64,000 nt of DNA from Chloroflexota bacterium (GTDB taxonomy: Bacteria > Chloroflexota > UBA11872): the NCBI GenBank assembly GCA_965220075.1, contig OZ244806.1:2519925-2583924 (forward strand), given 5' to 3'. Position numbers and translations under genes: made by a program. How positions within the stretch are numbered: the first letter of the stretch is position 1; each line of letters begins with the position of its first letter. Below, in pieces: positions 3,598 through 47,479 of this stretch. The notes beneath the pieces are model-generated. The model was not told the origin of the DNA. It did not search any database and worked only from the letters and a program-made list of their open reading frames with translations.

Positions 3598-3737
3598 CGG
3601 TTGCCGACATCGTACGTCCGCACCAGCGGCACAGGCCAGCTTCCACGCGCCGCCGGGCGCGTGCGGCCGCTCGGCCGCACGGTGACCGGCTAGACTCGGC
3701 GCGCAGGTCAGTTGGGCCAGCGAGAGAGGCTGCAAGC

Positions 3738-5102
3738 ATGAACCGCAACGCGGCGCCAAGCACCGCGCTCCCCAGAACCGATGAATATCTGGCCCCCTCA
3801 TCCGAGACGGCGCGCCTCCACGCGCGCGCAAGCCGCGTGATGGTGGGAGGCACCTCGCGGATCCACTACTTCTTCGAGCCGTACCCCATCTATGCGCGGT
3901 CCGGAAAAGGCGCGTACGTGACCGACGTGGACGGAACCGAGCGGGTGGACTTCCTATTCAACATGACCACCCTCATCCACGGGCATGCGGACGCGGCGAT
4001 CAATCGAGCGCTGCGCGAACAACTGGACCAGGGCGCCTCCTTCTCCGAACCGGAAGAGTCGGAGGTCCGGCTGGCCGAGCTTATCGCCCAGCGGGTGGCG
4101 TCGGTGGAAAAGATTCGCTTCGCGAACTCCGGCACGGAGGCGGTGATGCTGGCGTTGAAGCTGGCGCGCGCGCACACCGGCCGAAGCCGCATAGCCAAAT
4201 TCGAGGGGTTCTACCACGGCTACTACGACCACGTGCAGGTGAGCTACGCCTCGCGGCCGGAAGTTTGGGGTCCGCCGGAGGCGCCCGCGAGCGTGGCCAG
4301 CTCCGGCGGTCTGGCGGAGTCGGTGGAGCGGGAAGTGGTGGTTTTGCCGTTCAACGACCGCGCAAGCGTCGAGCGCCTGTTCGAAGAGCACGGCCACACG
4401 CTGGCCGCGCTGGTGGTCGACCCGCTCTCGAATCGCGGCGGGTTTCCGAAGCCGGCGCCCGGGTTCTTCGATTTCCTGCGGCGGTTGACCCGGGCTCACG
4501 GAGTGGTGCTCGTCTTCGACGAAGTCATCAGCTTTCGACTCGGTTACCACGGCGCGCAGGGCCGCTACGGAGGCGCTCCGGACCTCACGGCATTCGGGAA
4601 GATCATTGGCGGCGGCCTGCCCGTGGGCGCGGTCGGCGGACGGAGCGAGATCATGGCGTTGCTCGATCCCACCGACGGTCCGCCGGAGATCGCCTCGGGC
4701 GGCACTTTCAGCGGAAACCCACTGAGCATGACCGCGGGTCTGGCCGCCATGCAGCGCATGACGCCCCCGCTGTACGAGCGCCTGGACGTACTGGGCGAGC
4801 GGCTGCGGCGCGAGTCCGACGCGGTCTTCAGCCGCGCGGGGATTGCGGCGCAACTGAGCGGAGACGGCTCGCTCTTCCGCATAGTCGCGGGCGATGCGCC
4901 GATCAGGCGCTACCGCGACCTTCGCGGCGATCCCGCGGCGGCCGCCTGGCTAGGCCGTCTGCACCGCGAGTTGCTGGCCAGCGGCATCATCGTCGCTAGG
5001 GAGGGCTTGGGCTGTCTGGCAACGGTTATGGGCGATGCCGAGGTCGACCGTTTTCTCGAAGGCCTGGAGACGGCCGTGCGGAGCGCCGGCAGTCCCGGCT
5101 AG
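3738..5102 (+). CDS. Class-III aminotransferase (glutamate-1-semialdehyde 2,1-aminomutase-like, PLP-dependent)
   Basis: 454 aa. Motifs match the GSA-aminomutase/omega-aminotransferase fold: HGHADAAINRALREQLDQG, VVLVFDEVISFRLGYHGAQ, and a GKIIGGGLPVGAVGG lysine-containing PLP loop. Confidence 0.9.
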   Translation: MNRNAAPSTALPRTDEYLAPSSETARLHARASRVMVGGTSRIHYFFEPYPIYARSGKGAYVTDVDGTERVDFLFNMTTLIHGHADAAINRALREQLDQGASFSEPEESEVRLAELIAQRVASVEKIRFANSGTEAVMLALKLARAHTGRSRIAKFEGFYHGYYDHVQVSYASRPEVWGPPEAPASVASSGGLAESVEREVVVLPFNDRASVERLFEEHGHTLAALVVDPLSNRGGFPKPAPGFFDFLRRLTRAHGVVLVFDEVISFRLGYHGAQGRYGGAPDLTAFGKIIGGGLPVGAVGGRSEIMALLDPTDGPPEIASGGTFSGNPLSMTAGLAAMQRMTPPLYERLDVLGERLRRESDAVFSRAGIAAQLSGDGSLFRIVAGDAPIRRYRDLRGDPAAAAWLGRLHRELLASGIIVAREGLGCLATVMGDAEVDRFLEGLETAVRSAGSPG

Positions 5103-5108
5103 CGGGAC

Positions 5109-5471
5109 CTACTCCCACTTCTCGAGGATGAACTCGCAGCCGAGGCCGTAGGCGCGCGACTCGTTCATCAGCAGGGCCAGGTCGGGAAACTCAATGATCC
5201 CCCAGCCGTCGTTCAAGGCGTCGAGAACCGTCTTGTAGGGCCATTCATCGGGATCCGTCGGACCTTCGTCGATCTCTCCCTGGCGGACTAGCGACATTCC
5301 GATCACGGGTGAATCGAGGTTCGTCTTCTGGGCCTGTAGGTATAGGAGGCTCTGGCGTCGGGACGAACCTTCATCGAGCGCAGCGAGAACGCCTTGCAAA
5401 CTGGTCTCCGCGAGGTTGCCCGCCCGGAGGTCCTCGATGCACTTCCGCACTTGCCGCCTGACGTTTTCCAT
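5109..5471 (-). CDS. hypothetical protein (120 aa)
   Basis: Clean ORF lying convergent with the aminotransferase. Codon usage is consistent with neighbours. No recognisable domain. Confidence 0.45.
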   Translation of the reverse strand: MENVRRQVRKCIEDLRAGNLAETSLQGVLAALDEGSSRRQSLLYLQAQKTNLDSPVIGMSLVRQGEIDEGPTDPDEWPYKTVLDALNDGWGIIEFPDLALLMNESRAYGLGCEFILEKWE

Positions 5472-5615
5472 AGTCTGGACGCCCCGCTACCCGCGCGTTT
5501 GCCAACTCGGCGCGCCGCCATTCTAGCGGTCGCGCTAGCATGCGGCGTTCGTGGCGGAAGTGAGCGCCAGCGGACGGCGCGCTAGCGCCCCCGGCGCCAG
5601 AAAAGGAACACCGAC

Positions 5616-6821
5616 GTGCTGAAATCGGCAACGTACGAGGCGGGTAGTCGGCAAGTAAGGATCGAGGTCGAGCGGATCGACACCTGGCGCGAAGACCAGG
5701 GGTCGGTGGTCAATTTCCCGGGAGTCGTGCAGCTCGACGGCGACCGGCTCTACATGACCTACCACCGCGCGCGCCACGGCGCCGCCGAGGGCGAGCCTCT
5801 GCTCTCGGTGCTGTCAGACGATGGCGGGGCCAGCTGGCGCGACGCCCCGCGGGATTTCCCGCTGATCGGCATCAACCCCGCTAATGGCAAGAGCTACGTG
5901 GATTTCGACTCGGGCGTCCTGGGCTATCTCAAAGACGGCACCATCTGCCGGATCGATCACGACACGGTGGAAGCGGCAGAGGGTTACAAGGGTCGGGAGT
6001 CGGGCTCCTTCCACGAGGTAAGCCAGATCAGCGACCCGACTTTCGTGTGGCGGCGCTGGGCGCGCAACGGGGAGCGGATCGAGAGCTGGAACATCAAGGT
6101 GCGAGGGTTGCCGTTCGAGAAGGCTTCGTACCAGTCCTACGCGTCACTGCTGGAGCTCGAAGGCGGCGACTTTCTAACCGCGCTGGAGTGGGTGGCGATT
6201 CTGCCGGAGGACGAGTGGACCGTGGACAGCCGCGGGCGCACGCGCAAGACGTGCATCAACGTGTTCATAGTGCGTTCGTCCGACCGCGGCAAGACCTGGG
6301 ACTTCGTGCAAGCGTTCGACTCGCAGGTGCTCAAGCCTGTATACGGGCCGGGCGACCGGCCGCTGGATGAAGGCTTCGACGAGGCCGATCTGGCGGAGCT
6401 GCCCAACGGCGACATCCTTTGCGTGATGCGCACGGGCTCCTACTCGCCGATGTTCCAGTCGCGTTCCAGTGACGGAGGGCGTACCTGGTCGACGCCCGAG
6501 AACACCGGCTGGCAAGGCGTGCGGCCGCAGCTGCAAGTTCTGCCCAGCGGCGTGCTGGCCTGCTCGGCCGGGCGCGGGGCCTACGGCCACCCGCAGATCA
6601 CGCACGTGATGCTGAGCCTGGACGGCACGGGCCGCCACTGGGAAACACCCTTCGCTTTTCACACCGGACCGGGATGCTCCTATACGACGGCCTGGCAACG
6701 CGATGACAGGTTGCACGTTGCTTTCTCGCACTCCGACTTCACGCGCGAGCTGGGAACCAACGAGCTGCCGATCCAGGCGATCAGGCGGGCCGTGCTAGAT
6801 ATCCAGGTGCTGTCCGGCTGA
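5616..6821 (+). CDS. BNR-repeat (sialidase/exo-alpha-sialidase-like) glycoside hydrolase family protein
   Basis: 401 aa with a GTG start. It has repeated S-x-D-x-G-x-T-W 'Asp-box' motifs (SDDGGASW, SSDRGKTWD, SSDGGRTWS) characteristic of the BNR/sialidase beta-propeller. Confidence 0.75.
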   Translation: MLKSATYEAGSRQVRIEVERIDTWREDQGSVVNFPGVVQLDGDRLYMTYHRARHGAAEGEPLLSVLSDDGGASWRDAPRDFPLIGINPANGKSYVDFDSGVLGYLKDGTICRIDHDTVEAAEGYKGRESGSFHEVSQISDPTFVWRRWARNGERIESWNIKVRGLPFEKASYQSYASLLELEGGDFLTALEWVAILPEDEWTVDSRGRTRKTCINVFIVRSSDRGKTWDFVQAFDSQVLKPVYGPGDRPLDEGFDEADLAELPNGDILCVMRTGSYSPMFQSRSSDGGRTWSTPENTGWQGVRPQLQVLPSGVLACSAGRGAYGHPQITHVMLSLDGTGRHWETPFAFHTGPGCSYTTAWQRDDRLHVAFSHSDFTRELGTNELPIQAIRRAVLDIQVLSG

Positions 6822-6841: not shown

Positions 6842-9103
6842 CTACGGTGCCAGGATCAGGCGGGCGTCCGGGGGGAGCTTGCCGGCGTCGCGATCCAGCC
6901 TGACGGCGTGGTAGACGCCCCCATTCCAGGCCGCCAGCTGGTCGAGGTAATGCGGGCTGCCGGGATGCCCTGACTGGCCGGCGGTGTCCATGGCCCAGAT
7001 TCCCGCCGGTCTATCGGACAGGTCGGTCACCATCCGGTAGGCGACGGGCGCCCCGGATGTCGCGGTCTCGTGCGGCTCGCTGGGGAGCTCCCCGGTCGCG
7101 TTCGGTCCGGTCTGGGGCGCCACGCCGCCGAGCAGCTCATCGAGGTCGCCGCGGCCGGATAGCGGGTGGCTCAGCCGCAGCGGGTGGAGGCGCGCCCAGG
7201 ACCATGACTCCATTTCAGCGCCCAGACGCTCTGTGAGCTCATCCAGAGCGCTCCCAAACGCCGCGCGCACGGCGGCAAGGCGGTCACGCCCCTGGAACCA
7301 TCCGGCCGGATCGCCCGCCAGCGTAGCCAGCGCCAGCCCCGCGATCGCGCTGGCCAGGAACGCATCCAACTCGGCACCCGCCGGCGTCGAAGCGTCCAGA
7401 CGCAGGCGGGCGGACACAACCGCACGCGTCCAGTGTGAAAAAAAGACGTCGAAGATCGCCGCGGCCGCGCTCCCCGGCTCGCGCCTGTAGTCCCATTGCC
7501 CTAGAAGCGCGGCCGCGCGCCGAACGCGTGGCTGCGTGCCGCCTCGCAGCGCGCCGAGCAGCGCAGGCACGCCGTCAGCGGCGCGTAGAAACAGCGTGTC
7601 GGCCTGCATGCGGCGGCAATCGTCGGCGCTGAGGGTGCGCCGCTCTTCGAGCATCTGCCGGATGCGCCGGGCGCGATAGCCGGTGGGCGAGGTGCAGCTG
7701 AGCGGATAGGGGTAGTCGGCGGGCGCCGGTGGGTTGTTGGCGGTGACTATCCATCCGCTGGAGGGATCGCTCAGCGCCGGGAGCCGGTCGAATGGAACCA
7801 CGCCGCGCCATTCGTCCAGCGGGTCCCAGCCGCGCCGCAAGCCGCGCTCGGCACGGCGACGGACGGGAAGGTGTCCGGTCACCTGGTAGCCGATGCGGCC
7901 GTCGACGTCGGCGAACAGAACATTCAGGGTCGGCGTGGCCCAATCACGCAGCGCCGCGCGGAACGTCTCGCAGGAGTCCGCGCGACCGCCGGCGAGCAGC
8001 GACGTCAACCAGCCGCAGGGTTGCGATCCGGTCCAACGCAACGACGCCGGACCCAGGCCGCGCGCCGCGGCCGGCAGCAGCTCGTCGACGATAGGGCCGT
8101 GACGGGATGACTGGATCTGCTTCCGAATGACGCCGCCGCCTTTGACCGCTATCTCCTCGACACGCTCGCCGGCGGGTTCCCAGTCGCCATCGAAGCCGAA
8201 GCTGCCGGGATGCCGCGGGTCGGTGCGCTCCTGATAGAGGTCGCGCTGCGAGCAATTGTTGTTGGTGATGCCCCAGGCCACGCGCGGATTGCATCCGATA
8301 AGCACGGCGGGCAGGCCGGCGTAGGCGATTCCCGCCAGATCGAACGAGCCGCCGCACAAGCGCACCTGATACCACCAGGAGAGCGCACCGACGGCGACAT
8401 GGGGATCGCTGGCCAGCAGTGGGGCGCGCGACGCGCTGCGCGCGGGCGCCACCACCCAGTTGTTGCTGCCCGGTCCGCAGTCGGGCCCGCCGGTGGGCGG
8501 ACCGGCCACGGCGGCGGGGAGAGGCCGGTAGGAGCCAGGCGGAAGGATGGTCTCGTCGCCCGCTTCAGCCGCCAGGAAGGCTTCGTACAACCGGCCTTCA
8601 CCCAGCGCGCGCCTGGCCAGCTCGGGGATGACGATGAGAGGCAAACGGCCGGACAGGTACCAGCGGAGCTCACCCATGACGGCCAGCCAGTCCAGGGATC
8701 GGAACGGCTGGGGCGTGTAGCCGAGCAGATCGAACTCGATAGGCAGCCGGTCGCGCGATTCCTCCAGCAGCGCGTTTGCTCCGTCGGTGAAGGCGTCGAG
8801 CAGGCGAGCGGTTTCGGCTGGAAGCGCTTCGAGCTCCGCGCGCGCTATCGCGGGCAAGCCGATCGTGCGCGCCAGCACGTCGGACTGCAACGCCTCCGGT
8901 CCCAGCGCTTCGGCGAGCCGGCCGAGGGCTCTGCGGCGCAGGTAGTCGAGTTGCCAGAGACGATCCTGGGCCATGGCGTAGCCGAAGCCCGTGAAAAGGT
9001 CGCGGTCGCCGGCGGCAAAGACGTGGGGGATGCCGAACGCGTCGCGCCGGATCTCGACCGCCGCGTCGACCGGCGCCCGGCCGCGGCCGTCGACGGACGG
9101 CAC
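6842..9103 (-). CDS. Penicillin acylase family protein (Ntn-hydrolase; penicillin amidase/AHL-acylase-like)
   Basis: 753 aa. Conserved N-terminal block PHVFAAGDRDLFTGFGYAMAQDRLWQLDYLRR. An internal GSNNWVV motif supplies the Ser N-terminal nucleophile of the beta subunit. No obvious signal peptide. Confidence 0.9.
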   Translation of the reverse strand: MPSVDGRGRAPVDAAVEIRRDAFGIPHVFAAGDRDLFTGFGYAMAQDRLWQLDYLRRRALGRLAEALGPEALQSDVLARTIGLPAIARAELEALPAETARLLDAFTDGANALLEESRDRLPIEFDLLGYTPQPFRSLDWLAVMGELRWYLSGRLPLIVIPELARRALGEGRLYEAFLAAEAGDETILPPGSYRPLPAAVAGPPTGGPDCGPGSNNWVVAPARSASRAPLLASDPHVAVGALSWWYQVRLCGGSFDLAGIAYAGLPAVLIGCNPRVAWGITNNNCSQRDLYQERTDPRHPGSFGFDGDWEPAGERVEEIAVKGGGVIRKQIQSSRHGPIVDELLPAAARGLGPASLRWTGSQPCGWLTSLLAGGRADSCETFRAALRDWATPTLNVLFADVDGRIGYQVTGHLPVRRRAERGLRRGWDPLDEWRGVVPFDRLPALSDPSSGWIVTANNPPAPADYPYPLSCTSPTGYRARRIRQMLEERRTLSADDCRRMQADTLFLRAADGVPALLGALRGGTQPRVRRAAALLGQWDYRREPGSAAAAIFDVFFSHWTRAVVSARLRLDASTPAGAELDAFLASAIAGLALATLAGDPAGWFQGRDRLAAVRAAFGSALDELTERLGAEMESWSWARLHPLRLSHPLSGRGDLDELLGGVAPQTGPNATGELPSEPHETATSGAPVAYRMVTDLSDRPAGIWAMDTAGQSGHPGSPHYLDQLAAWNGGVYHAVRLDRDAGKLPPDARLILAP

Positions 9104-9379
9104 ACGCCGCCGCGTTTCGACCTGCCACCAGCGCGCGAATTCGGGCTGGGTCAGACCCGCCGCGGCGCAGACGCCGTCGATGGGCTCACCGGCGCCCAGC
9201 CTGCCAAGAATCTGTGCGGCGGTTAGTTGAATGAGCTGAAGGAAGGCCGCGCACGTACGGGGCGCGCGGCGCGGCCAGCCTATGCGCCTTTGTTTTGGAG
9301 CGTCAACGGGAGCGCGCGGGGCGGATCGACGCGCCGCGGCAACGTCGCGGGCAGGGCGGCCTGAGGGACACGCCGCTGC

Positions 9380-10726
9380 TCAGGGCCGGCCGGTAAGCGC
9401 GCCCAGTGAGCGGTCTCTCGCTTCGGCCAGGGAGGCCAGGCGCGCGGCGTCCATCACACCCTCTTCGGTGACGATCTGGGCGCTCGCGCCCAGACGGAAG
9501 CGGTCGAAGCCGGGTTCCAGCTCCAGCCCGCACACGCTTCTCACAACCCGCTCGGTCGTGGCCGTGACCACGGTGCGGGCGCCAACGTGCTCGGCCGCGC
9601 GCAGGAGCAACGCGCTGGGCCAGCCATTGATCGCGCCGGCCGCGGGGTCCAGAGCGTCCGCGCCCAGCAGCAGCAAGTCCACGTCTTCCAATCCGCGATC
9701 GAGAAGCGCGTCGTCCATCACGGCGGCGTCCAGTCCCGCGTCCCTGAGCTCCCTCGCCATACGGCGGCCATGGGCGTCCGCCCCGGCGCCCGAGGCCGCC
9801 ACCAGCACTTGCGGCCGGGCGCCGCTCCGGGCCAGCGACCGAAGCGCGCGCAGCACCAGCGAGCTGTAGCTGCCGGTCGCGATGCGCGCCGCTCCCGCAA
9901 TGAGCGCCGCTGTCTGTCGCGCCGTGCAGTCCCGCGCCTGGCGCTGCGCGTCGATGAGCTCGGCCGCGGCGCGGCGCGCATCGCGAGGGGCGCCACCGGA
10001 AGCCGCCACCTGCTCCCACCAGCGGGCGGCCAGACCCCCGATGGACGCCATGCCGGGACGCGCGGCCGCCAGCGCGCGGGCAAGCCGGTCAAGCTGCGCG
10101 ACCGCCTCGTCGCCGACCGCAACAGCCAGGGCGGCGTCCCCGAGCAACGCGAGTCCCTCGGCGGCCAGCGTGCTAGCGCCCTGCGTCCGGTTGTTCCGAA
10201 TAGCCCGGATGCGTGCGCGTATTTCCGGCCGGTCCACTCGCCGCGGCGCCGCACGCGCCCAGGTCTCGCCAAGCCGGGGCACGGCGCGCAGCCGTTGCAG
10301 GTCGTCCGGGTCGACCCAGCGGAGCTCCGTGTGCTCCCAGTCGAGCCGCGGGTCGGCCGCGGGGTCCAGGCGGTAGCGCGACGGGTGCACCACGAAGCGG
10401 CCACGCTGGCCGCCGGCCACCAGAGCGGGTGCGGCCGCCTCGAACACGACTTGGGGCGGGGCGAGGCCCGTCTCTTCGCGAATCTCACGCAGGGCCTGGT
10501 CGATAGGCGCCGCGTTGCCGGCAAGGCTGCCGCTCACGGCAGCCCAGCGCCCCGGAAACGTAGCGACTCGGCGGCTGCGTTTGAGGACGAGCAGCCGGCC
10601 GGCGCGGTGCAGAAACGCCGTCACCACGTGCCGGTCGCGCGCGGAAGAAACGGGGTTGCGGATAGCGCTGCGAGTCACCGAAGCGTGCGTCCTCGGACCG
10701 GGGGGCCTGAGAATATTTTGGCCCAT
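9380..10726 (-). CDS. Fusion protein: N-terminal NUDIX hydrolase domain with C-terminal eIF-2B alpha/beta/delta-like (MtnA/ribose-1,5-bisphosphate isomerase family) domain
   Basis: Nudix box GSLAGNAAPIDQALREIREETGL (GX5EX7REUXEEXGU) lies at the N-terminus. The C-terminal ~260 aa (GASTLAAEGLALL...ARPQVLVAASGAG...LLLGADALDPAAGAINGWPSALLLRAAEHVGARTVV) match the IF-2B family fold. Start is taken at ATG 10726, since upstream in-frame residues overlap an AT-rich divergent promoter. The N-terminal boundary is uncertain. Confidence 0.8.
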   Translation of the reverse strand: MGQNILRPPGPRTHASVTRSAIRNPVSSARDRHVVTAFLHRAGRLLVLKRSRRVATFPGRWAAVSGSLAGNAAPIDQALREIREETGLAPPQVVFEAAAPALVAGGQRGRFVVHPSRYRLDPAADPRLDWEHTELRWVDPDDLQRLRAVPRLGETWARAAPRRVDRPEIRARIRAIRNNRTQGASTLAAEGLALLGDAALAVAVGDEAVAQLDRLARALAAARPGMASIGGLAARWWEQVAASGGAPRDARRAAAELIDAQRQARDCTARQTAALIAGAARIATGSYSSLVLRALRSLARSGARPQVLVAASGAGADAHGRRMARELRDAGLDAAVMDDALLDRGLEDVDLLLLGADALDPAAGAINGWPSALLLRAAEHVGARTVVTATTERVVRSVCGLELEPGFDRFRLGASAQIVTEEGVMDAARLASLAEARDRSLGALTGRP

Positions 10727-10836
10727 GCGCCGCCCGCGCGCGGGCGGCGCCCCGTTGAGTCCACTAGCGAATCTGTCATATTTTGAAGTTGGACGACCCC
10801 CCAAGCGATAACGCTAAGAGCACAGCCACGGCCGCA

Positions 10837-11790
10837 ATGAGCTCCCTGAAGGTCCGTTTGCAGGTTGTCAACCCGGCAATGCTGGGCTGGCGGACCGGGG
10901 AGCACTATCTCAGGCGCGGATTCCGCGTGATCCAGGCAAACCCCTGGCCCTATGCGCTGATCCTCACGCTGCTGGCGATTCCGGCCGGGGCGGCGGCGGC
11001 GATCACGGTGTCCGAGCTGCCCGATGGTCCCGGCAAGGTGGCCGCGGTGTTCTTGCTCAACACCATCTCGGCGACCTTCGCCCCTCCGATTGTGATGATG
11101 GCCGTATCGGCCGGGTTCCGTGGAGAGGTTCTGAGCCTTGCCGCCTCGATCGGCCGCGGGGCGGTGTGGATTCCGCGTTACATCTGGACCAATCTCCACA
11201 CGACGCCGATCTTCTGGGTGCCTGTGACTCTGCTTGAGACGCTAAGGCAGTGGCGCTCCGATAACGCGCCGTTGGAGGGTCTGGCGGAGATTGCGCTGTC
11301 GGCAGCCTTCGTGATCGTGATCGCGGCGGTGGCGCTCTACCTGCACATGCGCACGTTGCTGGCGCCCTTCTTCGCCGTACATGGAAAGCTGCCGGGCACG
11401 CTGGCGACCATCGAGTCGTGGCGCCTCAGCGGCCGGCGCCCCGCCGAGACCTTCGGCACGATGGTCGTGGCGTCGGCCCCGGCGGCCGTGCCCAGCGGCG
11501 CGCTGATTCTCGGGCTCTATTTCAGTCTGGCGGGCGTTCCCGAGGCGCAGGCGGTGCTGGGTGCGATGCTGCCGTCGCTCGTTTTGGTCTTCATCAAGCT
11601 GGTGCGGCCTTTTCTTATTCCGGCGACCTATCTGCTGTACAACGACCTCTGGAGTGAGGAAGTCGACCGCCGAGCCCGCGAGGGACATCCACCGATTCCG
11701 TTCCTGGCCAGGCCGCTGCTGGCCCTTTCCCGCTGGCTCCCTCGGCTGGCGGGCTGGCTGATCGGGCGCAGGGTCGACTCGACGCTTTAG
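10837..11790 (+). CDS. hypothetical polytopic integral membrane protein
   Basis: About 318 aa from ATG 10837. It has 6-8 predicted TM helices (ALILTLLAIPAGAAAAI, AFVIVIAAVALYL, LPSLVLVFIKLV...). It is divergent from the Nudix-fusion gene. No domain recognised. Confidence 0.6.
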   Translation: MSSLKVRLQVVNPAMLGWRTGEHYLRRGFRVIQANPWPYALILTLLAIPAGAAAAITVSELPDGPGKVAAVFLLNTISATFAPPIVMMAVSAGFRGEVLSLAASIGRGAVWIPRYIWTNLHTTPIFWVPVTLLETLRQWRSDNAPLEGLAEIALSAAFVIVIAAVALYLHMRTLLAPFFAVHGKLPGTLATIESWRLSGRRPAETFGTMVVASAPAAVPSGALILGLYFSLAGVPEAQAVLGAMLPSLVLVFIKLVRPFLIPATYLLYNDLWSEEVDRRAREGHPPIPFLARPLLALSRWLPRLAGWLIGRRVDSTL

Positions 11791-11853
11791 CCCCGACTGC
11801 TTCGCCCGACGGCGCCGTGTCACGGGCGGGGCCGCCTTCGAGCCGGAGCGGTA

Positions 11854-12678
11854 CTACGGCACGCTGCTGTACGGGAACTCGCCGGGCAGATAGCGCACCG
11901 GTACCTGCGGGAAGCGCTCGCCCAGGTGGCCGGACAGCACTTTCATACCGGGTTTCTCGGCGGTCGAGTGATGCACGACCAGCGCCGGCACGTCGAGATC
12001 GAATGCGAGCTGCACGCCGTAGAGCCGAAAGCCGTCGTCCGTGACGAGCGCCGCGTCGGCGCCCAGATCGAGCATCGGGGGCAGATTGACAATCGCGCCG
12101 GTGCCGACCGCCATACGCTCCACGCGTTTGTTGCGATCACCCCAGATCAGAACGGTCTCCTGCCCGTAGGGCCGCACGCGCTCGAGCACGCGCTGCGCCA
12201 GCTCCTCGACTGTCATCCCGTTAACGAGGCAGATCCTGTAGTAAGACCCGACCGGGCGCGGCTCGGTCTCGAACCCGAACATGGTGGCCCAGGTATCCGC
12301 GATGCCGATGTCGGGCAGGCGGTCGGAGACATCGTGGCAGCGGAGCAACGTGATGCCCTTTTCACGGAGAAACGCGCGCTTTTGCTCCGCCATTCGGTGC
12401 ACGATAGCGGTGTCAAAGTAACCCGGTCCCTGATAGAACGCCGGCTCGTGACAGATAAACAGGTTGAATCCCGCCTGAGCGGCCTCGTTGAGGACCTTGT
12501 TGGTAGCCATCCAGGCGACGGCGATGCCCGTGACCTCGGATTCGGGGTCGCCGAAGATGAAGCGATCGGGACCGGGCCAGGTGGGGTCAACCGGGTAGAC
12601 GCTGGGGGGCTCGCTGCCCACCTCGGAGAGCCATGCGCCGATTTCGATGAGGTGCTCCATCACGGCTCTTGCGCGCAT
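11854..12678 (-). CDS. Nif3-like dinuclear metal centre protein (YqfO/YbgI family; GTP cyclohydrolase 1 type 2 homolog)
   Basis: 274 aa. Conserved blocks FNLFICHEPAFY and C-terminal DAALVTDDGFRLYGVQLAFDLDVPALVVHHSTAE are typical of the Nif3 family. Confidence 0.8.
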   Translation of the reverse strand: MRARAVMEHLIEIGAWLSEVGSEPPSVYPVDPTWPGPDRFIFGDPESEVTGIAVAWMATNKVLNEAAQAGFNLFICHEPAFYQGPGYFDTAIVHRMAEQKRAFLREKGITLLRCHDVSDRLPDIGIADTWATMFGFETEPRPVGSYYRICLVNGMTVEELAQRVLERVRPYGQETVLIWGDRNKRVERMAVGTGAIVNLPPMLDLGADAALVTDDGFRLYGVQLAFDLDVPALVVHHSTAEKPGMKVLSGHLGERFPQVPVRYLPGEFPYSSVP

Positions 12679-12807
12679 CGACTGCCTTCCTTATCGCAAT
12701 TCACTAAGCGGCACGCCGGTCACCATAGCCCCAGGCATCCGCCAGCGGCCAGCCAATCCCCGCGCGGGTCGTTCAGAAGCGCGTAAAACAAGACCGGGCA
12801 CGCCAAC

Positions 12808-13509
12808 TCAAACCGGCGATTGGCGCTTCAGCGTCTCCAGCAGCTCGTGCGGTACGCCTGGCAGTCGGTCCCACGGGTAGTGCTCGACGACCTGGTCCGT
12901 GGTCGTGATAAACGCCAGATGCCAGCCAAGGGTCAGGAGGGTGCTCTCGTGCAGCCGCTGCAGACAGCTCATGCAGGCGTCTTCCACCACCACGGCCTGA
13001 TAGCGGCAATCAACGGCGCCGCGCACTGTGGACTCCAGGCAAAAGGAGGTGTCGGAACCGGCGAAGAAGGCGCTGCCGACGCCGCGCCGCCGCAGCACGG
13101 CGTCCAGGCCGGACGCGTTGAACGCGCCGGTGGCCCACTTGTAGACGACCGGCTCGCCCTCACGCGGCTCGAGAGGCGGGTACTGGTGCCGGTGCCAGTC
13201 CCACTGCACGAACACGACCGGGCGCTGCTTCGACCGGAAGAAGTCCACGAGGCGGATGGCGTTGGGCACCGTCTCTGCGTAGATGCGCTGGGCCAGCTCT
13301 TCCCCCAACGCCGGTGCGTAGCGCCCAAAGTCCTCGATATAGAGGTCGAACGCCTTCTTATCGAAGTCCACCAGGACCAGAGCGCTCTGCCGCGGGTCGA
13401 TTTCGACGGCCTTGCGGCGCTCGATGTGGGCGGCGACGTCCCAACTTCCTTGCGACACGGGCCGCGGCCAGGTGAGCGGCTTGTCCCATTGACTCTGCCA
13501 GGCTTGCAT
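12808..13509 (-). CDS. Isochorismatase-family cysteine hydrolase
   Basis: 233 aa. ALVLVDFDKKAF (beta1 with catalytic Asp) and AFFAGSDTSFCLESTVRGAVDCRYQAVVVEDAC (catalytic Cys) match the isochorismatase/CSHase fold. Confidence 0.8.
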   Translation of the reverse strand: MQAWQSQWDKPLTWPRPVSQGSWDVAAHIERRKAVEIDPRQSALVLVDFDKKAFDLYIEDFGRYAPALGEELAQRIYAETVPNAIRLVDFFRSKQRPVVFVQWDWHRHQYPPLEPREGEPVVYKWATGAFNASGLDAVLRRRGVGSAFFAGSDTSFCLESTVRGAVDCRYQAVVVEDACMSCLQRLHESTLLTLGWHLAFITTTDQVVEHYPWDRLPGVPHELLETLKRQSPV

Positions 13510-14686: not shown

Positions 14687-14716
14687 GGTGGCCCGACCTT
14701 CAGGTCGGGCCACCGG
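14687..14716. repeat. REP-like palindromic element, copy 1 (GGTGGCCCGACC-TTCA-GGTCGGGCCACC)
   Basis: Perfect 12-bp inverted repeat around TTCA, in the AKR/higB intergenic space. Near-identical copies occur at 16922-16972 and 17788-17817. Confidence 0.8.
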
Positions 14717-14723
14717 GTGAATT

Positions 14724-14747
14724 GTAACCTGAGCGGTAACAGGTTAC
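14724..14747. promoter_or_regulatory. Palindrome GTAACCTG-N8-CAGGTTAC immediately upstream of higB start (candidate HigA operator)
   Basis: Perfect 8-bp inverted repeat that ends 10 nt before the higB ATG. TA operons are typically autoregulated through such palindromes. Confidence 0.4.
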
Positions 14748-14757
14748 ACTTGCGCGC

Positions 14758-15036
14758 ATGATCCTTGGTTTCCGTCACAGGGGGCTGCGACGGCTGTACG
14801 AGAAGGGGGACCGGCGGCGCATCCCGCCCGAGTATGTCGCGAAGGTTGAGCGCATCCTGGCTCGGCTCGATGTGGCGGCAGAGCCGCGGAATATGGACAT
14901 GCCGGGTTACAGACTGCATTCGTTGAGCGGTGATCTCGAGGGCTTCTGGTCGGTGAGCGTATCCGGTAACTGGCGGCTGATCTTCCGTTTTGACGCAGGT
15001 AACGTCCGCGACGTAGACCTGATCGACTATCACTAG
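14758..15036 (+). CDS. higB: Type II toxin HigB (RelE/ParE superfamily, 'plasmid maintenance system killer')
   Basis: 92 aa. RRLYEKGD...[13 protein letters not shown]...[32 protein letters not shown]...VDLIDYH matches the HigB family. It is followed 14 nt later by an XRE-type antitoxin. Confidence 0.85.
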
Positions 15037-15049
15037 AGGGGAGAAGAGG

Positions 15050-15343
15050 ATGTCCATGAAGAATCCACCTCATCCGGGGCTATCCGTTCGTCACGACTGC
15101 CTGGAGCCACTTGGCCTGAGCGTAACGGAGGCGGCACGAAGGCTGGGGGTGAGCCGCAAGCAGCTATCAGGGATCGTGAACGGTCATTCGGGAATCTCTC
15201 CAGAGATGGCGATCCGCCTCGACAAGGCGTTCGGAGGCGGCGCGACCACCTGGTACCAGATGCAGGCGGCATATGACCTGGCACAGGCGGCCAACAAGGC
15301 CGACAGCATCGATGTCGACCGCATTGAGCTTTCAGTAAGGTAA
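15050..15343 (+). CDS. higA: Antitoxin HigA (XRE-family HTH, addiction-module antidote)
   Basis: 97 aa. [40 protein letters not shown] is the HigA-type HTH. The toxin-first gene order is characteristic of higBA. Confidence 0.85.
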
Positions 15344-15588
15344 CCGCTTTGCACCAGGCGCAGTTGAGCAGTCGGCGGCCAGGGCGTTCATGTAGGCGGG
15401 CTTCGGTTATGCATCTAGGGAATCCATGCCGCTCGAGCGGCTGCCGCACCTCCCAGCCTTCCCAACCGGCTTGCTTGAGCCCGCCGAGCATGCGCGCCAG
15501 GTCCGGCGTGGGCCCGTATTCGAGAGTGTTGTAGGCGAGTCTTAGTGCCATTGCTGGTTTCCAGCGCTATCGCGGGGCATCTGACCTG

Positions 15589-16701
15589 CTACGCGTGGAG
15601 GATGAGCTGGGCGGTCACGTCGGTGAGGCGCCGGAGCTCGTCGTGCGGCATCCGTTCGGCGACGGAGTGCACGTCGTGGTAGCCGACCGCCAGAATCGCG
15701 GTCGCAATGCCCTTTTCGTTGAAGTTCTGGGCATCGCTTCCACCGTGCGTAGAGATGTGACGGGGCTCGAGGCCGGCGGCGGCAATGGCGGTGTCGGCGA
15801 GCCGTATAGCCGGGTGATCGTCGTCAAATCGGGTGACCTTGAACCGGCCCCTTTGCGTATAGTCGACGCGGCCGCCAAACGCGGCCGCGGCATCCTCGCA
15901 GGCCCGGCGCATGGCGGCCATCTGCCGTTCGAGGGCCTCCTGGTCCAGGCTTCGCGCCTGACCCACGAGCTTGACCTCCGGGGGCACGATGTTGGCCGCC
16001 TGGCCGCCTGACACGACGCCGACGTTGGCGACCGTCACGTCATCGACCCGGCCCAGCGGCATGTTGTCCACCGCGCGCGCTTGCATGGCAATGGCGTTGA
16101 TCCCGGTCTCCGGCGCGATGCCGGCGTGCGCGGCCTTCCCGTGGAAGATTGCTTCGAAGCCGTAGGAGGCGGCCTGGCGCGTGACGAGATCTCCAACGGG
16201 GCCGCCGGCATCCAGGACGAAGGCCACGCGCGCGTCGATATCGTTCGGATCAAAGGCGTCGGCGCCGAATTGCCCGACGTCCTCGCCCACCGTGAAGACC
16301 AGCTCGATCGGCCCGTGATCCACCCCCGCGTCATGGACGGCGAGGACAGCCTCGACGATGGCGGCCACGCCGGCCTTGTCGTCCGCCCCCAGCACGCTGG
16401 AGCCGTCGGAGTAGACGCCGTCCACCTTGACGACCGGCCGCATGCCGGGCGTGGGCTGCACCGTGTCCATGTGGGCATTGAGCATGATTGGCAGCGTCTG
16501 CTTGCCCTTGGCCGGCCACTTGCCGATGAGATTGCCAATCTCGTCGCGCGTAAAGACCACCCCGATGTCCTCCAGCAGCGGCTGAATGATCGCCACCACG
16601 CGGCCCTCGTTGCCCCAGTAGCTATCGACGCTGAGGATGTCGACGAAGGTCTTGAGCAACCGGTCGTGGTTGACGGCGACGGGGACGGCTGGGGTTGTCA
16701 T
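15589..16701 (-). CDS. M20-family metallopeptidase (peptidase T/tripeptidase-like)
   Basis: About 370 aa from ATG 16701. NAHMDTV, GADDKAGVAAIVEAV and HGKAAHAGIAPE...G are the metal-binding and catalytic motifs of the M20/ArgE/PepT family. Confidence 0.85.
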   Translation of the reverse strand: MTTPAVPVAVNHDRLLKTFVDILSVDSYWGNEGRVVAIIQPLLEDIGVVFTRDEIGNLIGKWPAKGKQTLPIMLNAHMDTVQPTPGMRPVVKVDGVYSDGSSVLGADDKAGVAAIVEAVLAVHDAGVDHGPIELVFTVGEDVGQFGADAFDPNDIDARVAFVLDAGGPVGDLVTRQAASYGFEAIFHGKAAHAGIAPETGINAIAMQARAVDNMPLGRVDDVTVANVGVVSGGQAANIVPPEVKLVGQARSLDQEALERQMAAMRRACEDAAAAFGGRVDYTQRGRFKVTRFDDDHPAIRLADTAIAAAGLEPRHISTHGGSDAQNFNEKGIATAILAVGYHDVHSVAERMPHDELRRLTDVTAQLILHA

Positions 16702-20878: not shown

Positions 20879-22336
20879 CTACTTGTCGCCCTCGGTCGTC
20901 TCGTCTTCCTTGCCGTCGGTGTCACTGTCGTGGACCGCAACGTCCGACACGACGCCGGGGAGGTTCTTGAGGGTGCTGATGATATCGACGCCCGTGAGCG
21001 ACTGCACCAGGGCCGGGAGTTGCGCGATGGTGGCCGATACGTCCTGCGTCACCTTGCTGGCGCCGGCGCCCGCCCCGTCGGCGCCGCCGTTGCTGATCAC
21101 CACGATGCTGTCGGTCTTGGCGAGGGGCTGCGCCACGGCGCTCGCGACATCGGGCAGCGATTCGAAGAGCTGCTGGATCATGGCCGCCTGGCCGTACTGC
21201 TTCCAGGCATCGGCCTTCTTGTTCATCGCCTGGGCCTCCGCGAGGCCTTGGGCTCTGGTAGCGTCCGCACCCGCCTCACCCCTCGCTCGGATGGCGTCAG
21301 CATCGGCTTGTCCACGGAGCCTGGTCGACTCGGCTTCCGCCTGGGCCTCGGCAATGACGCGTGCGCGCTCGCCCTCCGCCACCGTCTCGAGCTTGTATCG
21401 TTCCGCTTCGGCCTCGACGCGTGTGCCGCGGCGGTGCCCTTCCGCGCGCAATTCCAATTGGTCGCGCTCGGCCTCGGCGGGACGCCGGATCGTCGCGTCT
21501 AGCTCGCGCTCCCGCCGGGCGACCTCCTGTACCTGGACCTCAATCTGCTTTTGCCGCTCGACGACCTCGACTTGCGACTCTTCCGACCGGATTCGCTGGC
21601 GGGTTATTGCCTCTTGAAGGGAGTAGGCCAGCTCGGCCTCGGCGCGCCGGGCGTTGACCTGCTGATCGTACGCGGCTTTTTGCGTCTGGAAGTCGCGTTC
21701 GGACTCGGCGATAGCGGTGTCGGCGGCGAACCGTGCCGCCTGCTGCTCCTGATCGGCCTGGGCTTGCTTAATGCCGGCGTCGCGTTCGGCCTGGGCCTCA
21801 CCGATGGCCGCGTCCCGCTTGACCTCCGAGGTCCGTCGTACGCCGAGGGCCTCCAGATAGCCCTGCTCATCCTGGATGTCGCGAATCGAGAAGCTGACGA
21901 TTTCCAACCCCATGTTGGTCATATCGGTTGCCGCCACGTCACGCACCTGCTCGGCAAAGGCCACGCGGTCCCGGTATATATCCTCGACGGTCATCGTGCC
22001 TAGAATGGCCCGTTGCTGACCCTCAAGGGTTTGTAGGGCAACCTCCGCGATCTCCGTCACGCTCTTACCCAAGAACTGCTCTGCCGCGGTGCGTATCGCG
22101 TCCTCGCTGCGTCCGACTTTGACCTGCGCGATGCCGTCGACTGAGACCGAGACGCCCTCCTTGGTGTAGACCCTGGCCGTGTTGACCGGAAGGGTCATTA
22201 CTTCCAGGGAGATCATCTGTGCTTTCTGCAATATCGGCAGCACGAACATCCGCCCGCCGACCTTCAGCTTGGGCCTAGTGCTTCCACCCGACACGATCAG
22301 CGCATGGTTCGGTCCTACTGTATGAAAGCCCGCCAT
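20879..22336 (-). CDS. Flotillin/SPFH (band 7) family protein
   Basis: 485 aa. N-terminal SPFH domain followed by an extended Ala/Glu-rich coiled coil (EAQAERDAGIKQAQADQEQQAARF...). Encoded immediately downstream of nfeD. Confidence 0.9.
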   Translation of the reverse strand: MAGFHTVGPNHALIVSGGSTRPKLKVGGRMFVLPILQKAQMISLEVMTLPVNTARVYTKEGVSVSVDGIAQVKVGRSEDAIRTAAEQFLGKSVTEIAEVALQTLEGQQRAILGTMTVEDIYRDRVAFAEQVRDVAATDMTNMGLEIVSFSIRDIQDEQGYLEALGVRRTSEVKRDAAIGEAQAERDAGIKQAQADQEQQAARFAADTAIAESERDFQTQKAAYDQQVNARRAEAELAYSLQEAITRQRIRSEESQVEVVERQKQIEVQVQEVARRERELDATIRRPAEAERDQLELRAEGHRRGTRVEAEAERYKLETVAEGERARVIAEAQAEAESTRLRGQADADAIRARGEAGADATRAQGLAEAQAMNKKADAWKQYGQAAMIQQLFESLPDVASAVAQPLAKTDSIVVISNGGADGAGAGASKVTQDVSATIAQLPALVQSLTGVDIISTLKNLPGVVSDVAVHDSDTDGKEDETTEGDK

Positions 22337-22369
22337 GTGTTCCCCCAGATGAGCTGCTACGGATCCGTG

Positions 22370-23731
22370 TTATGCATCGCTCGAGGCTCCCGGTCCATCG
22401 TACAGCTTTTCGACTTTGAGAACCCGTCCATACACCCCGACGACTCGCACCTCATCGCCTTCCTGGATCGAGACCCCGGGATCGGTTGACGCCGACCACT
22501 CCCTGTCCGACACCTTGACCCTGCCTGCCGGATCGAGGTCGGTCAGGGCCATGCCCGATGCTCCTTCCAGCTGCATCTCCTCCGCGGTTTGAAATCCGGT
22601 CGAGACCCCTCCGCCATGGATAGCCAGGCGGATGAACAGCACCCACGCCGCGGTCATGAGTCCGGACGTCACCGCAATCATGATCGGGCTCACCATGATG
22701 TTCAGCTCCGGGAGATCCGATGGGCTGAAGAAGTTGCCGAACAGGAAGATCGACCCGAGGACGAAAGAGACAATTCCGCCCGCACCGAAGAGGCTGAATC
22801 CCGGCGCCGTCGTCTCCGCATAGAACAGTCCCATGGCAAGGGCAAGAAGCACCAGGCCAACCCAGTTGCCCGGCAGATTGAAGAATCCGACGAAGGCCAG
22901 GATGAGCGAGATAACGCCGACGACCCCTGGGCCGATCATGCCGGGAACGGACCACTCCGCCCAGAGAGCCAACCCCCCCAGCAGGAACAGCACCAGGGCC
23001 AGGTTGGGATTCGCGAGGATCCCCAGCAGGTGTTCCAGCAGCGTGCGGCCAAGCTGGTCCACTCGTGCCCCGGCGGACTCGACCACCACCGGCCCGGCCG
23101 CGGTCTCGGCGGTGCGGCCGTGGAGTTGCTCCAGCATGGTGTCCATATCGGGAGCGATGAGGTCGATGATTCCGACGTCCAGGGCCTCCTGCTCCGAGAA
23201 GGCCTTGGCTTTCGACACGGTTTCCTCCAGGGCATCGCCGTTGCGATCCCGGATCTCGGCAATGCTGCGGATGAAGGCCCGGGTGTCCTCGTCCACCTTG
23301 CGCGCGAGTGTCTCGGGAAGGTCGACGCCGCCGGGGCCGACCGCCGCGGCCGCGCCGATGTTGGTGCCCGGCGCCATCACCGCGAAATTCGCCGCGGCTG
23401 CAACAAAGGTGCCCGCCGAAGCCGCTCTGGCGCCTGAAGGCGAGACGTACACCGCGACGGGGACGTGCGCTTCCAGGAGCCGCTCGACGATTTCGCGGGT
23501 CGAGTCCACGAGGCCGCCCGGCGTGTCCAAGCGGATGACGGCCAGCGATGCGCCGTCGCCGCGAGCCTTGTCGAGTCCCCGCGCAACGTGAGCGGAGGAC
23601 AGCGGCTCGATGGCTCCGTCGACCTCGATGACGAGCACGGTCGGCCCATCTGCCCGTGCCGGGTCGGTGGACTGCCACGCCAGAAGCACGGAGGCAGCAA
23701 CAACTGCCGCGACGGCAACCAGGCGACGCAT
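22370..23731 (-). CDS. NfeD-family membrane-bound ClpP-class serine protease
   Basis: 453 aa. Signal peptide, ClpP-like domain (VIEVDGAIEPLSSAHVARGL...SAGTFVAAAANFAVMAPGTNIGAA), multi-TM region and C-terminal OB-fold. This is the canonical NfeD-flotillin operon partner. Confidence 0.9.
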   Translation of the reverse strand: MRRLVAVAAVVAASVLLAWQSTDPARADGPTVLVIEVDGAIEPLSSAHVARGLDKARGDGASLAVIRLDTPGGLVDSTREIVERLLEAHVPVAVYVSPSGARAASAGTFVAAAANFAVMAPGTNIGAAAAVGPGGVDLPETLARKVDEDTRAFIRSIAEIRDRNGDALEETVSKAKAFSEQEALDVGIIDLIAPDMDTMLEQLHGRTAETAAGPVVVESAGARVDQLGRTLLEHLLGILANPNLALVLFLLGGLALWAEWSVPGMIGPGVVGVISLILAFVGFFNLPGNWVGLVLLALAMGLFYAETTAPGFSLFGAGGIVSFVLGSIFLFGNFFSPSDLPELNIMVSPIMIAVTSGLMTAAWVLFIRLAIHGGGVSTGFQTAEEMQLEGASGMALTDLDPAGRVKVSDREWSASTDPGVSIQEGDEVRVVGVYGRVLKVEKLYDGPGASSDA

Positions 23732-45182: not shown

Positions 45183-45434
45183 GCTGAGGGAACGCCGGTG
45201 CGCGGGCGGCCGGCCACGGCAGCTGGATTCAGGCTCAAGGCCGGAATGACGAAGGGGGCGGCCAATCGGCGGCATGCCGAAATGGCGCGGCTTGAAGGGT
45301 CCAGGGACCGATGCGAGGGCCCAGGAGTTGTGCGCAGGCAGAGCGGCGCATAAAGTGCGGCGACCTCCATGGCGCCGGAGTTGGTCGCGGGGCTGAAATG
45401 TCCGCCGCCGCCCCTTCATCTAGATGAGGTGCGT

Positions 45435-47381: not shown

Positions 47382-47479
47382 TCGAGGGAGAGGGGGCCGG
47401 ACTCTCACCGGAAAAGGGAGTCGGGGTCGGACCCTAACCTTCTGCTGGACGCGGATTTGAGCGATAGGAGGCGGTGGGC

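Follow-up and report, generated by a model that had tools for sequence, protein, structure and literature searches.

IF-2B proteins that lack the catalytic Cys of the sugar-phosphate isomerases (the PH0440-type 'aIF2B', HVO_1934, and HVO_2706) have remained a puzzle ever since the first genomes of archaea, and their annotations are inconsistent. Here we describe a bacterial protein of this kind, a single-chain fusion of a Nudix domain with an IF-2B-fold domain, encoded on the minus strand of a 64,000-nucleotide stretch of a Chloroflexota genome (contig OZ244806.1; this whole stretch is referred to as the window, and residues of the fusion protein are counted from ATG 10726). Our tentative reading, which we place somewhat short of an even chance, is that the protein combines a Nudix pyrophosphatase with a non-isomerase, ribose-5-phosphate-binding IF-2B partner and acts in the recycling of pyridine nucleotides (nicotinamide adenine dinucleotide, NAD, and ADP-ribose).

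The described system with the same architecture is HVO_1934 of Haloferax, which has an N-terminal Nudix and a C-terminal IF-2B domain, a similar length (43 kDa), and Ser at the position of the isomerase Cys (TLSRS); the Haloferax loci that hold its orthologues (L059, L070) align to window residues 16-418 with about 31% identity. HVO_1934 differs in being archaeal and of the canonical NKxG[ST]/ESRP type, whereas the window protein carries an NGxP[ST] motif, a deletion of about 25 residues after position K393, and a degenerate ESRP motif, and has bacterial proteins as its nearest relatives. HVO_1934 has only one or two interactions with archaeal initiation factors (aIF), and its deletion, alone or together with that of HVO_2706, gave no phenotype under 12 conditions (PMC3828320, PMC8576121). 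As HVO_1934 has already been annotated and knocked out, the fusion is not a new architecture.

Three further systems lack a Nudix partner. The ribose-1,5-bisphosphate (R15P) isomerase (TK0185/PH0208; PDB 3a11, 5yfj) shares with the window protein the fold, the GA turn, the RP motif (R65), S137, D204, and N214; it differs in its catalytic Cys, which is Ser in the window, and in R22, Q166, and K215, all replaced in the window. No RuBisCO, AMP-phosphorylase, or PrsA motif was found within 10 kb in 80 loci of the fusion family (see below). PH0440 (1vb5, NCBIfam model NF006210), the best single-sequence PDB match of the window protein (E 2.4e-8), carries Ser in place of the Cys (THSFS) and, like the NK-type members of the family described below, Glu in place of Q166; unlike the window protein it is a stand-alone chain of about 276 aa, without a Nudix partner in the solved entry, and keeps the NK motif. 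The alpha subunit of eIF2B has the IF-2B fold with a pocket that lacks the Cys and the C1-phosphate (1-P) ligands and keeps the 5-phosphate (5-P) and sugar ligands (PMC5789824; PDB 7kmf/7kma). It belongs to a decameric guanine nucleotide exchange factor of eukaryotes, has Ala or Gly at the Cys position and no Nudix module, and serves here as the working analogy for an IF-2B domain that only binds.

A preliminary description of the sequence had proposed an unusual single-polypeptide fusion of a Nudix hydrolase with an IF-2B-like domain of the MtnA/R15P-isomerase family. The single polypeptide is borne out. The reading frame (9380..10804, minus strand) is one uninterrupted open reading frame (ORF), a stop or frameshift dividing it into two genes was looked for and none was found, both Pfam domains score above their cut-offs, and the AlphaFold2 model of the whole chain, built with 73 homologues, has a mean pLDDT of 93.1 and a pTM of 0.80.

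The IF-2B-like nature of the C-terminal part is equally clear at the level of fold. Pfam PF01008 matches residues 181-367 with 51.2 bits against a cut-off of 22.4, with profile positions 2-193 of 280 aligned; the fold is nonetheless complete, since the C-terminal 280 residues of the model superpose on R15P isomerase 5yfs (root-mean-square deviation 2.9 Å, 305 columns, TMt 0.75) and on PH0440 1vb5 (TMt 0.77). Foldseek matched the C-terminal part to R15P isomerase (3a9c being a further match), PH0440, and eIF2B subunits with probability 1.00 and TMt of 0.75-0.78. When a 73-member family profile was compared with the PDB, TK0185, PH0208, and PH0440 scored about equally (E 2e-64 to 1e-63), and the best matches were the Cys-to-Ser mutant entries 3vm6 and 5yfs, which aligns the invariant Ser of the family with catalytic Cys133/135.

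The models of characterized families give a different picture. On the R15P isomerase model TIGR00511 the window protein scores 26 bits against a cut-off of 314, and its best-scoring relatives reach only 68-146 bits; neither of the MtnA models (TIGR00512 and TIGR00524, cut-offs 279 and 186 bits) matches it at E<=1, and the relatives reach 57-122 bits on these models, below the cut-offs. The PH0440-type model NF006210 gives 42.3 bits against 339. In MtnA the catalytic Cys lies in a T-H-C-N-x-G motif. By these scores the C-terminal domain of the window protein belongs to the IF-2B superfamily and stands outside every characterized family within it.

To compare the pocket with that of the isomerase, the ligand residues of PH0208 (PMC5789824) were mapped onto 66 family members of the canonical NK type, 23 of the NG type to which the window protein belongs, and the window protein itself (Table 1). 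The catalytic Cys is replaced by Ser in about 96% of family members. The same substitution made in PH0208 (C135S) abolishes catalysis and leaves substrate binding intact (PMC5789824). Three of the four C1-phosphate ligands (Arg22, Gln166, Lys215) are lost in the window protein and Arg65 alone is kept, while the G-A backbone turn is retained in NK-type members, NG-type members, and the window alike.

Table 1. Residues of the PH0208 active site and their counterparts in the Nudix-IF-2B family.
PH0208 residue	Role	NK-type members	NG-type members	Window
Cys135	catalytic	Ser 63/66	Ser 22/23	S286
Asp204	catalytic	kept	kept	D357
Arg22	1-P ligand	His/Ser	His/Ser	Q182
Arg65	1-P ligand	kept	kept	R223
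Gln166	1-P ligand	Glu 66/66	Tyr/His/Phe 22/23	H319
Lys215	1-P and sugar ligand	kept	Gly 23/23	G368
Ser137	5-P ligand	kept	kept	S288
Asn214	sugar ligand	kept	kept	N367
Lys240	5-P ligand	kept	kept	R393

Because the Cys is Ser, the C1-phosphate ligands are gone, and the scores lie far below the equivalog cut-offs, a role as R15P or methylthioribose-1-phosphate (MTR-1-P) isomerase is unsupported; to judge from its residues, the IF-2B module is most likely neither enzyme, and the view of the C-terminal domain as an MtnA/R15P-type isomerase is not supported. We propose ribose-5-phosphate binding because Ser288, Asp357, Asn367, the G-A turn, and Arg393 (in place of Lys240) remain, together with Arg223; Lys215, a residue that also touches the sugar, is Gly368. 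The pocket thus looks like one suited to ribose 5-phosphate (R5P) without a C1 phosphate. A sugar 5-phosphate was likewise proposed as the ligand of the eIF2B-alpha-type pocket, which lacks the 1-P ligands, by the authors of the PH0208 study (PMC5789824).

The Nudix module is equipped for catalysis. Its box, placed where the preliminary description had seen it, has an intact REx2EExGL core (G66...R80-E81-I-R-E84-E85-T-G87-L88), and matches the GX5EX7REUXEEXGU box of the superfamily in its catalytic glutamates. E81, E84, and E85 are invariant across 76 relatives, and so is E131, downstream of the box, within the family. In the window, Ala takes the place of the canonical first Glu of the box (G+6), at a position that varies across the family. 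The domain is modeled with a pLDDT of 92 as a compact MutT/NudI/RppH/Ap4A-hydrolase-like fold; Foldseek returned 536 PDB matches at E<=0.001, the top 50 listed being all Nudix enzymes, with NudI, RenU, BdRppH, and Methanosarcina mazei MutT (3grn, TMt 0.82) nearest. Since the catalytic REx2EE helix is intact, the module most likely still cleaves a nucleoside-diphosphate-X compound. A Pro follows the box at +12 in the window (P100) and at +13 in the family (P101, 53 of 76). Reportedly, in work by Dunn et al. of 1999, the ADP-ribose pyrophosphatase subfamily has a Pro about 15 residues past the Nudix box.

The fusion is not unusual. A word-indexed homology search gave two relatives only, whereas exhaustive scanning of 1.84 billion cluster representatives with HMMER yielded 2,200 matches, 41 of them below 1e-30; dozens of representatives of 400-450 aa align over both domains, and the end-to-end alignments have E from 5e-57 downwards. 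A scan of GTDB with one genome per species and a 12-sequence alignment as query found 448 relatives in at least 10 phyla or classes, including Planctomycetota and Deltaproteobacteria. As the architecture is recurrent, the earlier impression of an unusual fusion is not confirmed. We analyzed the loci of the best 80 of these 448 relatives, with neighborhoods of +/-10 kb, and the statements on loci below refer to this set. Its bacterial members come from Chloroflexota/Dehalococcoidia, Moorellales, Brocadiia, Pirellulaceae, Poribacteria, Syntrophobacterales, Myxococcota, and Nitrospiraceae, and its archaeal members from Bathyarchaeia, Hecatella, Methanolliviera, and Halobacteria. The family pattern reads VVTxF...RS..V.TY.G.W..VSG...E..EE.GL...HPF...DWE...W...TVP.L and continues into an IF-2B domain whose Cys position is Ser; the window protein fits it over its full length. 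Members carry database names such as 'NUDIX domain-containing protein', 'translation initiation factor 2B subunit/8-oxo-dGTP...', and 'Methylthioribose-1-phosphate isomerase', and in the literature searched we found no biochemical characterization of the Nudix-IF-2B family.

Separate, adjacent genes encode the Nudix (about 135 aa) and IF-2B (about 290 aa) modules in 15 or more of the 80 loci. The stop codon of the Nudix gene and the start codon of the IF-2B gene overlap as ATGA in five of these (L038, L046, L055, L061, L069), and in the other split loci a gap of a few bases separates the two. Assembly frameshifts as the source of the split genes can be ruled out, as the ATGA overlaps occur in several independent metagenome-assembled genomes; we read the junctions as translational coupling. 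That the same two subfamilies occur both fused and split implies a joint function of the modules (the Rosetta-stone argument), and the two are obligatorily coupled genetically. Members of some 560 aa from Deltaproteobacteria (L014, at 9653-11341, L026, and L053) are extended N-terminally, ahead of the Nudix domain, by about 120 Cys-rich residues with CxxC pairs, and two genes lie 3' of the fusion in the same loci, one AMP-binding ligase-like and one of the radical-SAM kind.

The window protein falls into a derived subclade marked by NGxP[ST] in place of NKxG[TS], by the deletion of about 25 residues after K393, and by the degenerate ESRP motif. It comprises the window protein, P0003-P0007, the proteins of L001, L002, L004, L007, and L062, and split Dehalococcoidia and Methanolliviera proteins. 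NGxP is conserved in 22-23 of the 23 NG-type members, and this strict conservation implies that the pocket has been remodeled rather than abandoned; S286, S288, D357, N367, G368, and P370 of the window fit the subclade signature.

It is in this subclade that a link to NAD recycling appears, through the nicotinamide mononucleotide (NMN) deamidase PncC and a NadD-like nucleotide adenylyltransferase. Operons of the order PncC-NadD-like-Nudix-IF2B occur in L038 and L061, NadD-like-Nudix-IF2B in L046 and L055, and PncC-Nudix-IF2B in L051. In L062 (Chloroflexi, 3731-5598) a Nudix gene (3731-4153) is ATGA-coupled to a 482-aa IF2B::PncC fusion (4150-5598), whose C-terminal PncC domain is of the CinA-C, NMN deamidase-like kind; this is a third kind of fusion tied to NAD recycling, beside the PncC::Nudix fusions L052, L079, and P0052 and the triple NadD-like::Nudix::IF2B fusions P0099 and P0183. 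The PncC domain scores above its NCBIfam cut-off (149 against 68.9 bits), and the adenylyltransferase matches nicotinate/nicotinamide-nucleotide adenylyltransferase models below their cut-off. Pyrophosphatases of NAD by-products tend to be fused with NAD-recycling enzymes, as in NadM-Nudix and COG1058-PncC (PMC3680494). These two physically join an NAD by-product pyrophosphatase to NAD-recycling enzymes, and the relatives of the window protein resemble them in their fusions and operons with PncC and an adenylyltransferase-like protein; they differ in that their adenylyltransferase is NadD-like and below cut-off, their Nudix domain is closer to other Nudix enzymes than to the classical ADP-ribose pyrophosphatases, and the IF-2B partner has no counterpart there. 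It is on these operons and fusions, together with the fusion precedent, that we name pyridine-nucleotide recycling as the most likely pathway. In the literature searched we found no account of the family-wide loss of the isomerase Cys, the fused and split pattern, the NGxP[ST] subclade, or the link to PncC and NadD-like proteins.

Taken together, the Nudix module would cleave an NAD-derived dinucleotide (NAD(H), ADP-ribose, or a relative), and the IF-2B module would capture, sense, or hand over that substrate or product by binding its ribose-5-phosphate moiety. IF-2B domains generally oligomerize, and this one probably oligomerizes the enzyme too. We infer both the ligand of the IF-2B domain and its absence of catalysis. 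The fused partners PncC, NadD-like, and DUF523 all act on nucleoside-monophosphate-type molecules (base-ribose-5-phosphate), and a Nudix subfamily fused to enzymes that use such molecules makes a hand-over of the Nudix product plausible. Of the channeling idea in the preliminary description, the coupling of the modules and a plausible hand-over therefore stand, but an isomerase as the recipient is unsupported.

Several observations weigh against this reading. The window gene stands alone as a monocistronic unit among neighbors unrelated to pentose or nucleotide pathways, and its closest fused relatives (L001, L002, L004) likewise lie among unrelated genes; the NAD context comes from about 10 of the 80 loci, and only from split or differently fused relatives in Dehalococcoidia and Chloroflexota. 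Other lineages point elsewhere. In L074 (8271-11366) ThiI lies directly 5' of a fusion of DUF523 (2-thiouracil desulfurase) with the Nudix domain, followed by an IF-2B-like gene, and in L056 (8347-11187) ThiI, the tRNA 4-thiouridine synthase, is divergent from a split Nudix/IF-2B pair; this gene content hints at thionucleotide salvage, apart from the NAD context. In six Bathyarchaeia loci (L008, L012, L019, L024, L028, L032; about 8400-13000) an Amidohydro_1 protein is encoded immediately 5' of the fusion. The Nudix domain has no ADP-ribose pyrophosphatase among its top sequence and structure matches, and its resemblance to NudI, MutT, RppH, and Ap4A hydrolases (RenU also being among the matches) means that the substrate is not fixed as NAD-derived. 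The window protein itself departs from the subclade consensus at D179N, E311A, D362A, G363A, P384R, K393R, and P411R and, in the Nudix domain, from the family-conserved E69 (E69A), and may have drifted functionally. The residue that strictly occupies the Q166 position, Glu in NK-type and Tyr/His in NG-type members, might have a new catalytic role, and the Haloferax family member was deleted without a phenotype.

Among all 80 loci no neighbor is universal: the largest neighbor cluster is found in 10 loci, and the contexts are lineage-specific. The block conserved in Bathyarchaeia also contains a downstream 127-aa protein and a divergent membrane transporter, with a HAD hydrolase a few kilobases on, and may be lineage synteny or an operon.

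The alternative that survives best, which we still consider unlikely, takes the IF-2B module as a new, Cys-independent enzyme that transforms a ribose-5-phosphate-containing Nudix product (R5P, NMN, or another nucleoside monophosphate) through its Asp and the new Glu (NK-type) or Tyr/His (NG-type). The strict conservation of the replacements at the Q166 position and of NGxP argues for a selected pocket and not for decay, and the substrates of the fusion partners named above would suit such an enzyme. However, no IF-2B superfamily member is known to catalyze a reaction without the Cys, the Q166 position of the window protein itself is His and several residues conserved in its subclade are missing from it, and the eIF2B alpha pocket can be a pure sugar-phosphate sensor (PDB 7kmf; PMC5789824). 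In a broader form, which we hold to be no less doubtful, the pair would be a two-step salvage device in NAD or nucleotide recycling, its IF-2B module being either a Cys-independent enzyme or an obligatory product-capturing subunit that acts on the Nudix product (NMN, R5P, or another nucleoside monophosphate). If this were true, it would give the Ser-type IF-2B proteins, including the PH0440-type archaeal 'aIF2B', their first biochemical function, and would reveal a stage, still metabolic, that lies between the sugar-phosphate isomerases and the regulatory, ligand-sensing subunits of eIF2B.

That the window copy is a drifting or relic protein, in which Nudix house-cleaning persists and the IF-2B part is a mere structural or oligomerization appendage without a ligand, appears improbable. 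The deviating ligand positions (ESRP changed to ASGA, K393R, D362A/G363A, D179N, and E69A in the Nudix domain), the monocistronic gene without related neighbors, and the dispensable Haloferax homologue are what such a relic would show. Yet the ORF is uninterrupted and has been kept in at least 5 related genomes, and among strain variants from four related genomes substitutions are equally dense in the two domains (about 3% each), which gives no sign of one-sided decay in what is a small sample; the whole-chain model is very confident, and the residues that fit the subclade signature remain.

Less probable again, and very unlikely in our view, is a channeled salvage route along the lines of the preliminary description, in which the Nudix module makes a C1-phosphorylated pentose (for example ribose-1,5-bisphosphate from phosphoribosyl pyrophosphate or ADP-ribose-1''-phosphate) and the IF-2B module isomerizes it to the ketose. 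The full R15P-isomerase fold, the match of the family profile to TK0185/PH0208 at E of about 1e-64, the retained catalytic Asp, RP, and GA motifs, and the fusion/fission pattern, which shows that the modules act together, would all accommodate it. Against this, the family-wide Ser corresponds to the inactive C135S mutant, the 1-phosphate ligands R22 and Q166 and, in the subclade of the window, K215 are replaced, and the scores on TIGR00511 and the MtnA models are those given above. No motif for the RuBisCO large subunit, AMP/thymidine phosphorylase, PrsA, or RpiA was found by crude regular-expression tests in the 1,191 ORFs of the 80 loci, and the genuine R15P isomerase of haloarchaea is a separate protein, encoded in operons with ribose-1-phosphate kinase and nucleoside phosphorylase.

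A regulator resembling translation initiation factor 2B, as in the historical aIF2B annotation, can be set aside: it has in its favor the homology to eIF2B alpha, beta, and delta and to PH0440 and the eIF-2B subunit names given to members in some databases, but most members and the nearest relatives of the window protein are bacterial (Chloroflexota, Moorellales) and so without e/aIF2, which effectively excludes it for bacteria, and the single and double Haloferax deletions and the sparse aIF interactions described above speak against it too.

The fusion itself will not surprise a specialist, and the window gene, an isolated and somewhat divergent member, adds little past membership. The family is of wider use as a concrete route to the function of the non-isomerase IF-2B proteins. 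Its fusion/fission pattern ties a large branch of the Cys-lacking proteins to one Nudix subfamily, and the link of the subclade to PncC and NadD-like proteins narrows the ligands worth testing to a few: NAD(H), ADP-ribose, NMN, nicotinic acid mononucleotide (NaMN), and R5P. When RuBisCO-linked or methionine-salvage pathways of Chloroflexota, Planctomycetota, Bathyarchaeia, and haloarchaea are reconstructed, it would be a mis-annotation to enter the family members as R15P or MTR-1-P isomerases.

The features of the gene are collected in Table 2. The frame is open up to TTG 10804 and has three possible starts, TTG 10804, ATG 10726, and GTG 10678; the last gives the 432-aa product of public gene calls, among which P0001 is 99% identical and P0153 identical to the window protein. 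A GAGGA sequence lies 11 nt 5' of GTG 10678 and ATG 10726 has no obvious Shine-Dalgarno sequence; family alignments start about 15 residues downstream of GTG 10678. GC content by codon position is 0.79/0.60/0.83 and matches that of real genes in a genome of 65-70% GC. An antisense ORF of 399 aa with high GC3 (9587-10786, plus strand), wholly within the fusion gene, was considered and rejected as a high-GC shadow. The nearest non-strain relative, P0002 (311 aa, 55% identical), matches as far as the SYSS motif, and the sequence from there to its end is unrelated; a frameshift or a contig end in the gene call is a more probable cause than natural truncation.

Table 2. Features of the Nudix-IF-2B fusion gene in window coordinates.
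Feature	Position	Strand	Description
CDS, Nudix-IF-2B fusion protein	9380..10726	-	448 aa from ATG 10726; stop codon 9380-9382
Nudix domain	10268..10627	-	residues 34-153; Pfam PF00293, 42.1 bits against a cut-off of 21.1
Nudix box GSLAGNAAPIDQALREIREETGL	10463..10531	-	REx2EExGL core intact
IF-2B-fold domain	9437..10225	-	residues 168-430; N-terminal helical subdomain and Rossmann-like subdomain
Ser286 codon, motif TGSYS	9869..9871	-	position of catalytic Cys133/135 of R15P isomerase
Asp357 codon, GAD motif	9656..9658	-	equivalent of catalytic Asp202/204; retained
NGWPS motif	9614..9628	-	in place of the NKxG[TS] sugar/1-phosphate ligand motif; NGxP[ST] subclade signature
Short divergent intergenic region	10727..10836	.	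between the fusion gene and the upstream plus-strand membrane-protein gene

Neither an Rfam element nor a consensus promoter was detected in the intergenic region, and a search for consensus promoters and terminators across 9000-11000 found none; in an Rfam scan of the whole window four tRNAs alone reached the gathering score, all distant from the fusion gene. The neighboring genes encode a penicillin amidase, a BNR protein, a class-III aminotransferase, a membrane protein, NIF3, an isochorismatase, an aldo-keto reductase, and an M20 peptidase. PncC and NadD queries against the 64-kb window gave no match. The isochorismatase was considered as the nicotinamidase PncA and rejected, its best NCBIfam matches being RutB- and biuret-hydrolase-like and far below cut-off.

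Elsewhere in the window, a flotillin/SPFH protein and its NfeD membrane protease-like partner form a classical SPFH-NfeD pair (20879-23731, minus strand), and two tandem paralogues of about 605 aa (45369-47201 and 47474-49285, plus strand) each carry a GHL10 (glycosyl-hydrolase-like 10) domain. An IS481-family transposase with rve, HTH_32, and LZ_Tnp_IS481 domains is encoded at 30320-31453 (minus strand), and the GC content near it is low (0.59 at 26-28 kb and 0.58-0.60 at 36-40 kb, against 0.65-0.70 elsewhere); these stretches may be acquired DNA. In a sister genome with 99% identity (L081) a HigB-like toxin/HTH antitoxin pair (5332-5923) lies between the aldo-keto reductase and the M20 peptidase, and the equivalent place in the window, at about 14700-15600, holds a 92-aa ORF (14758-15036, plus strand).

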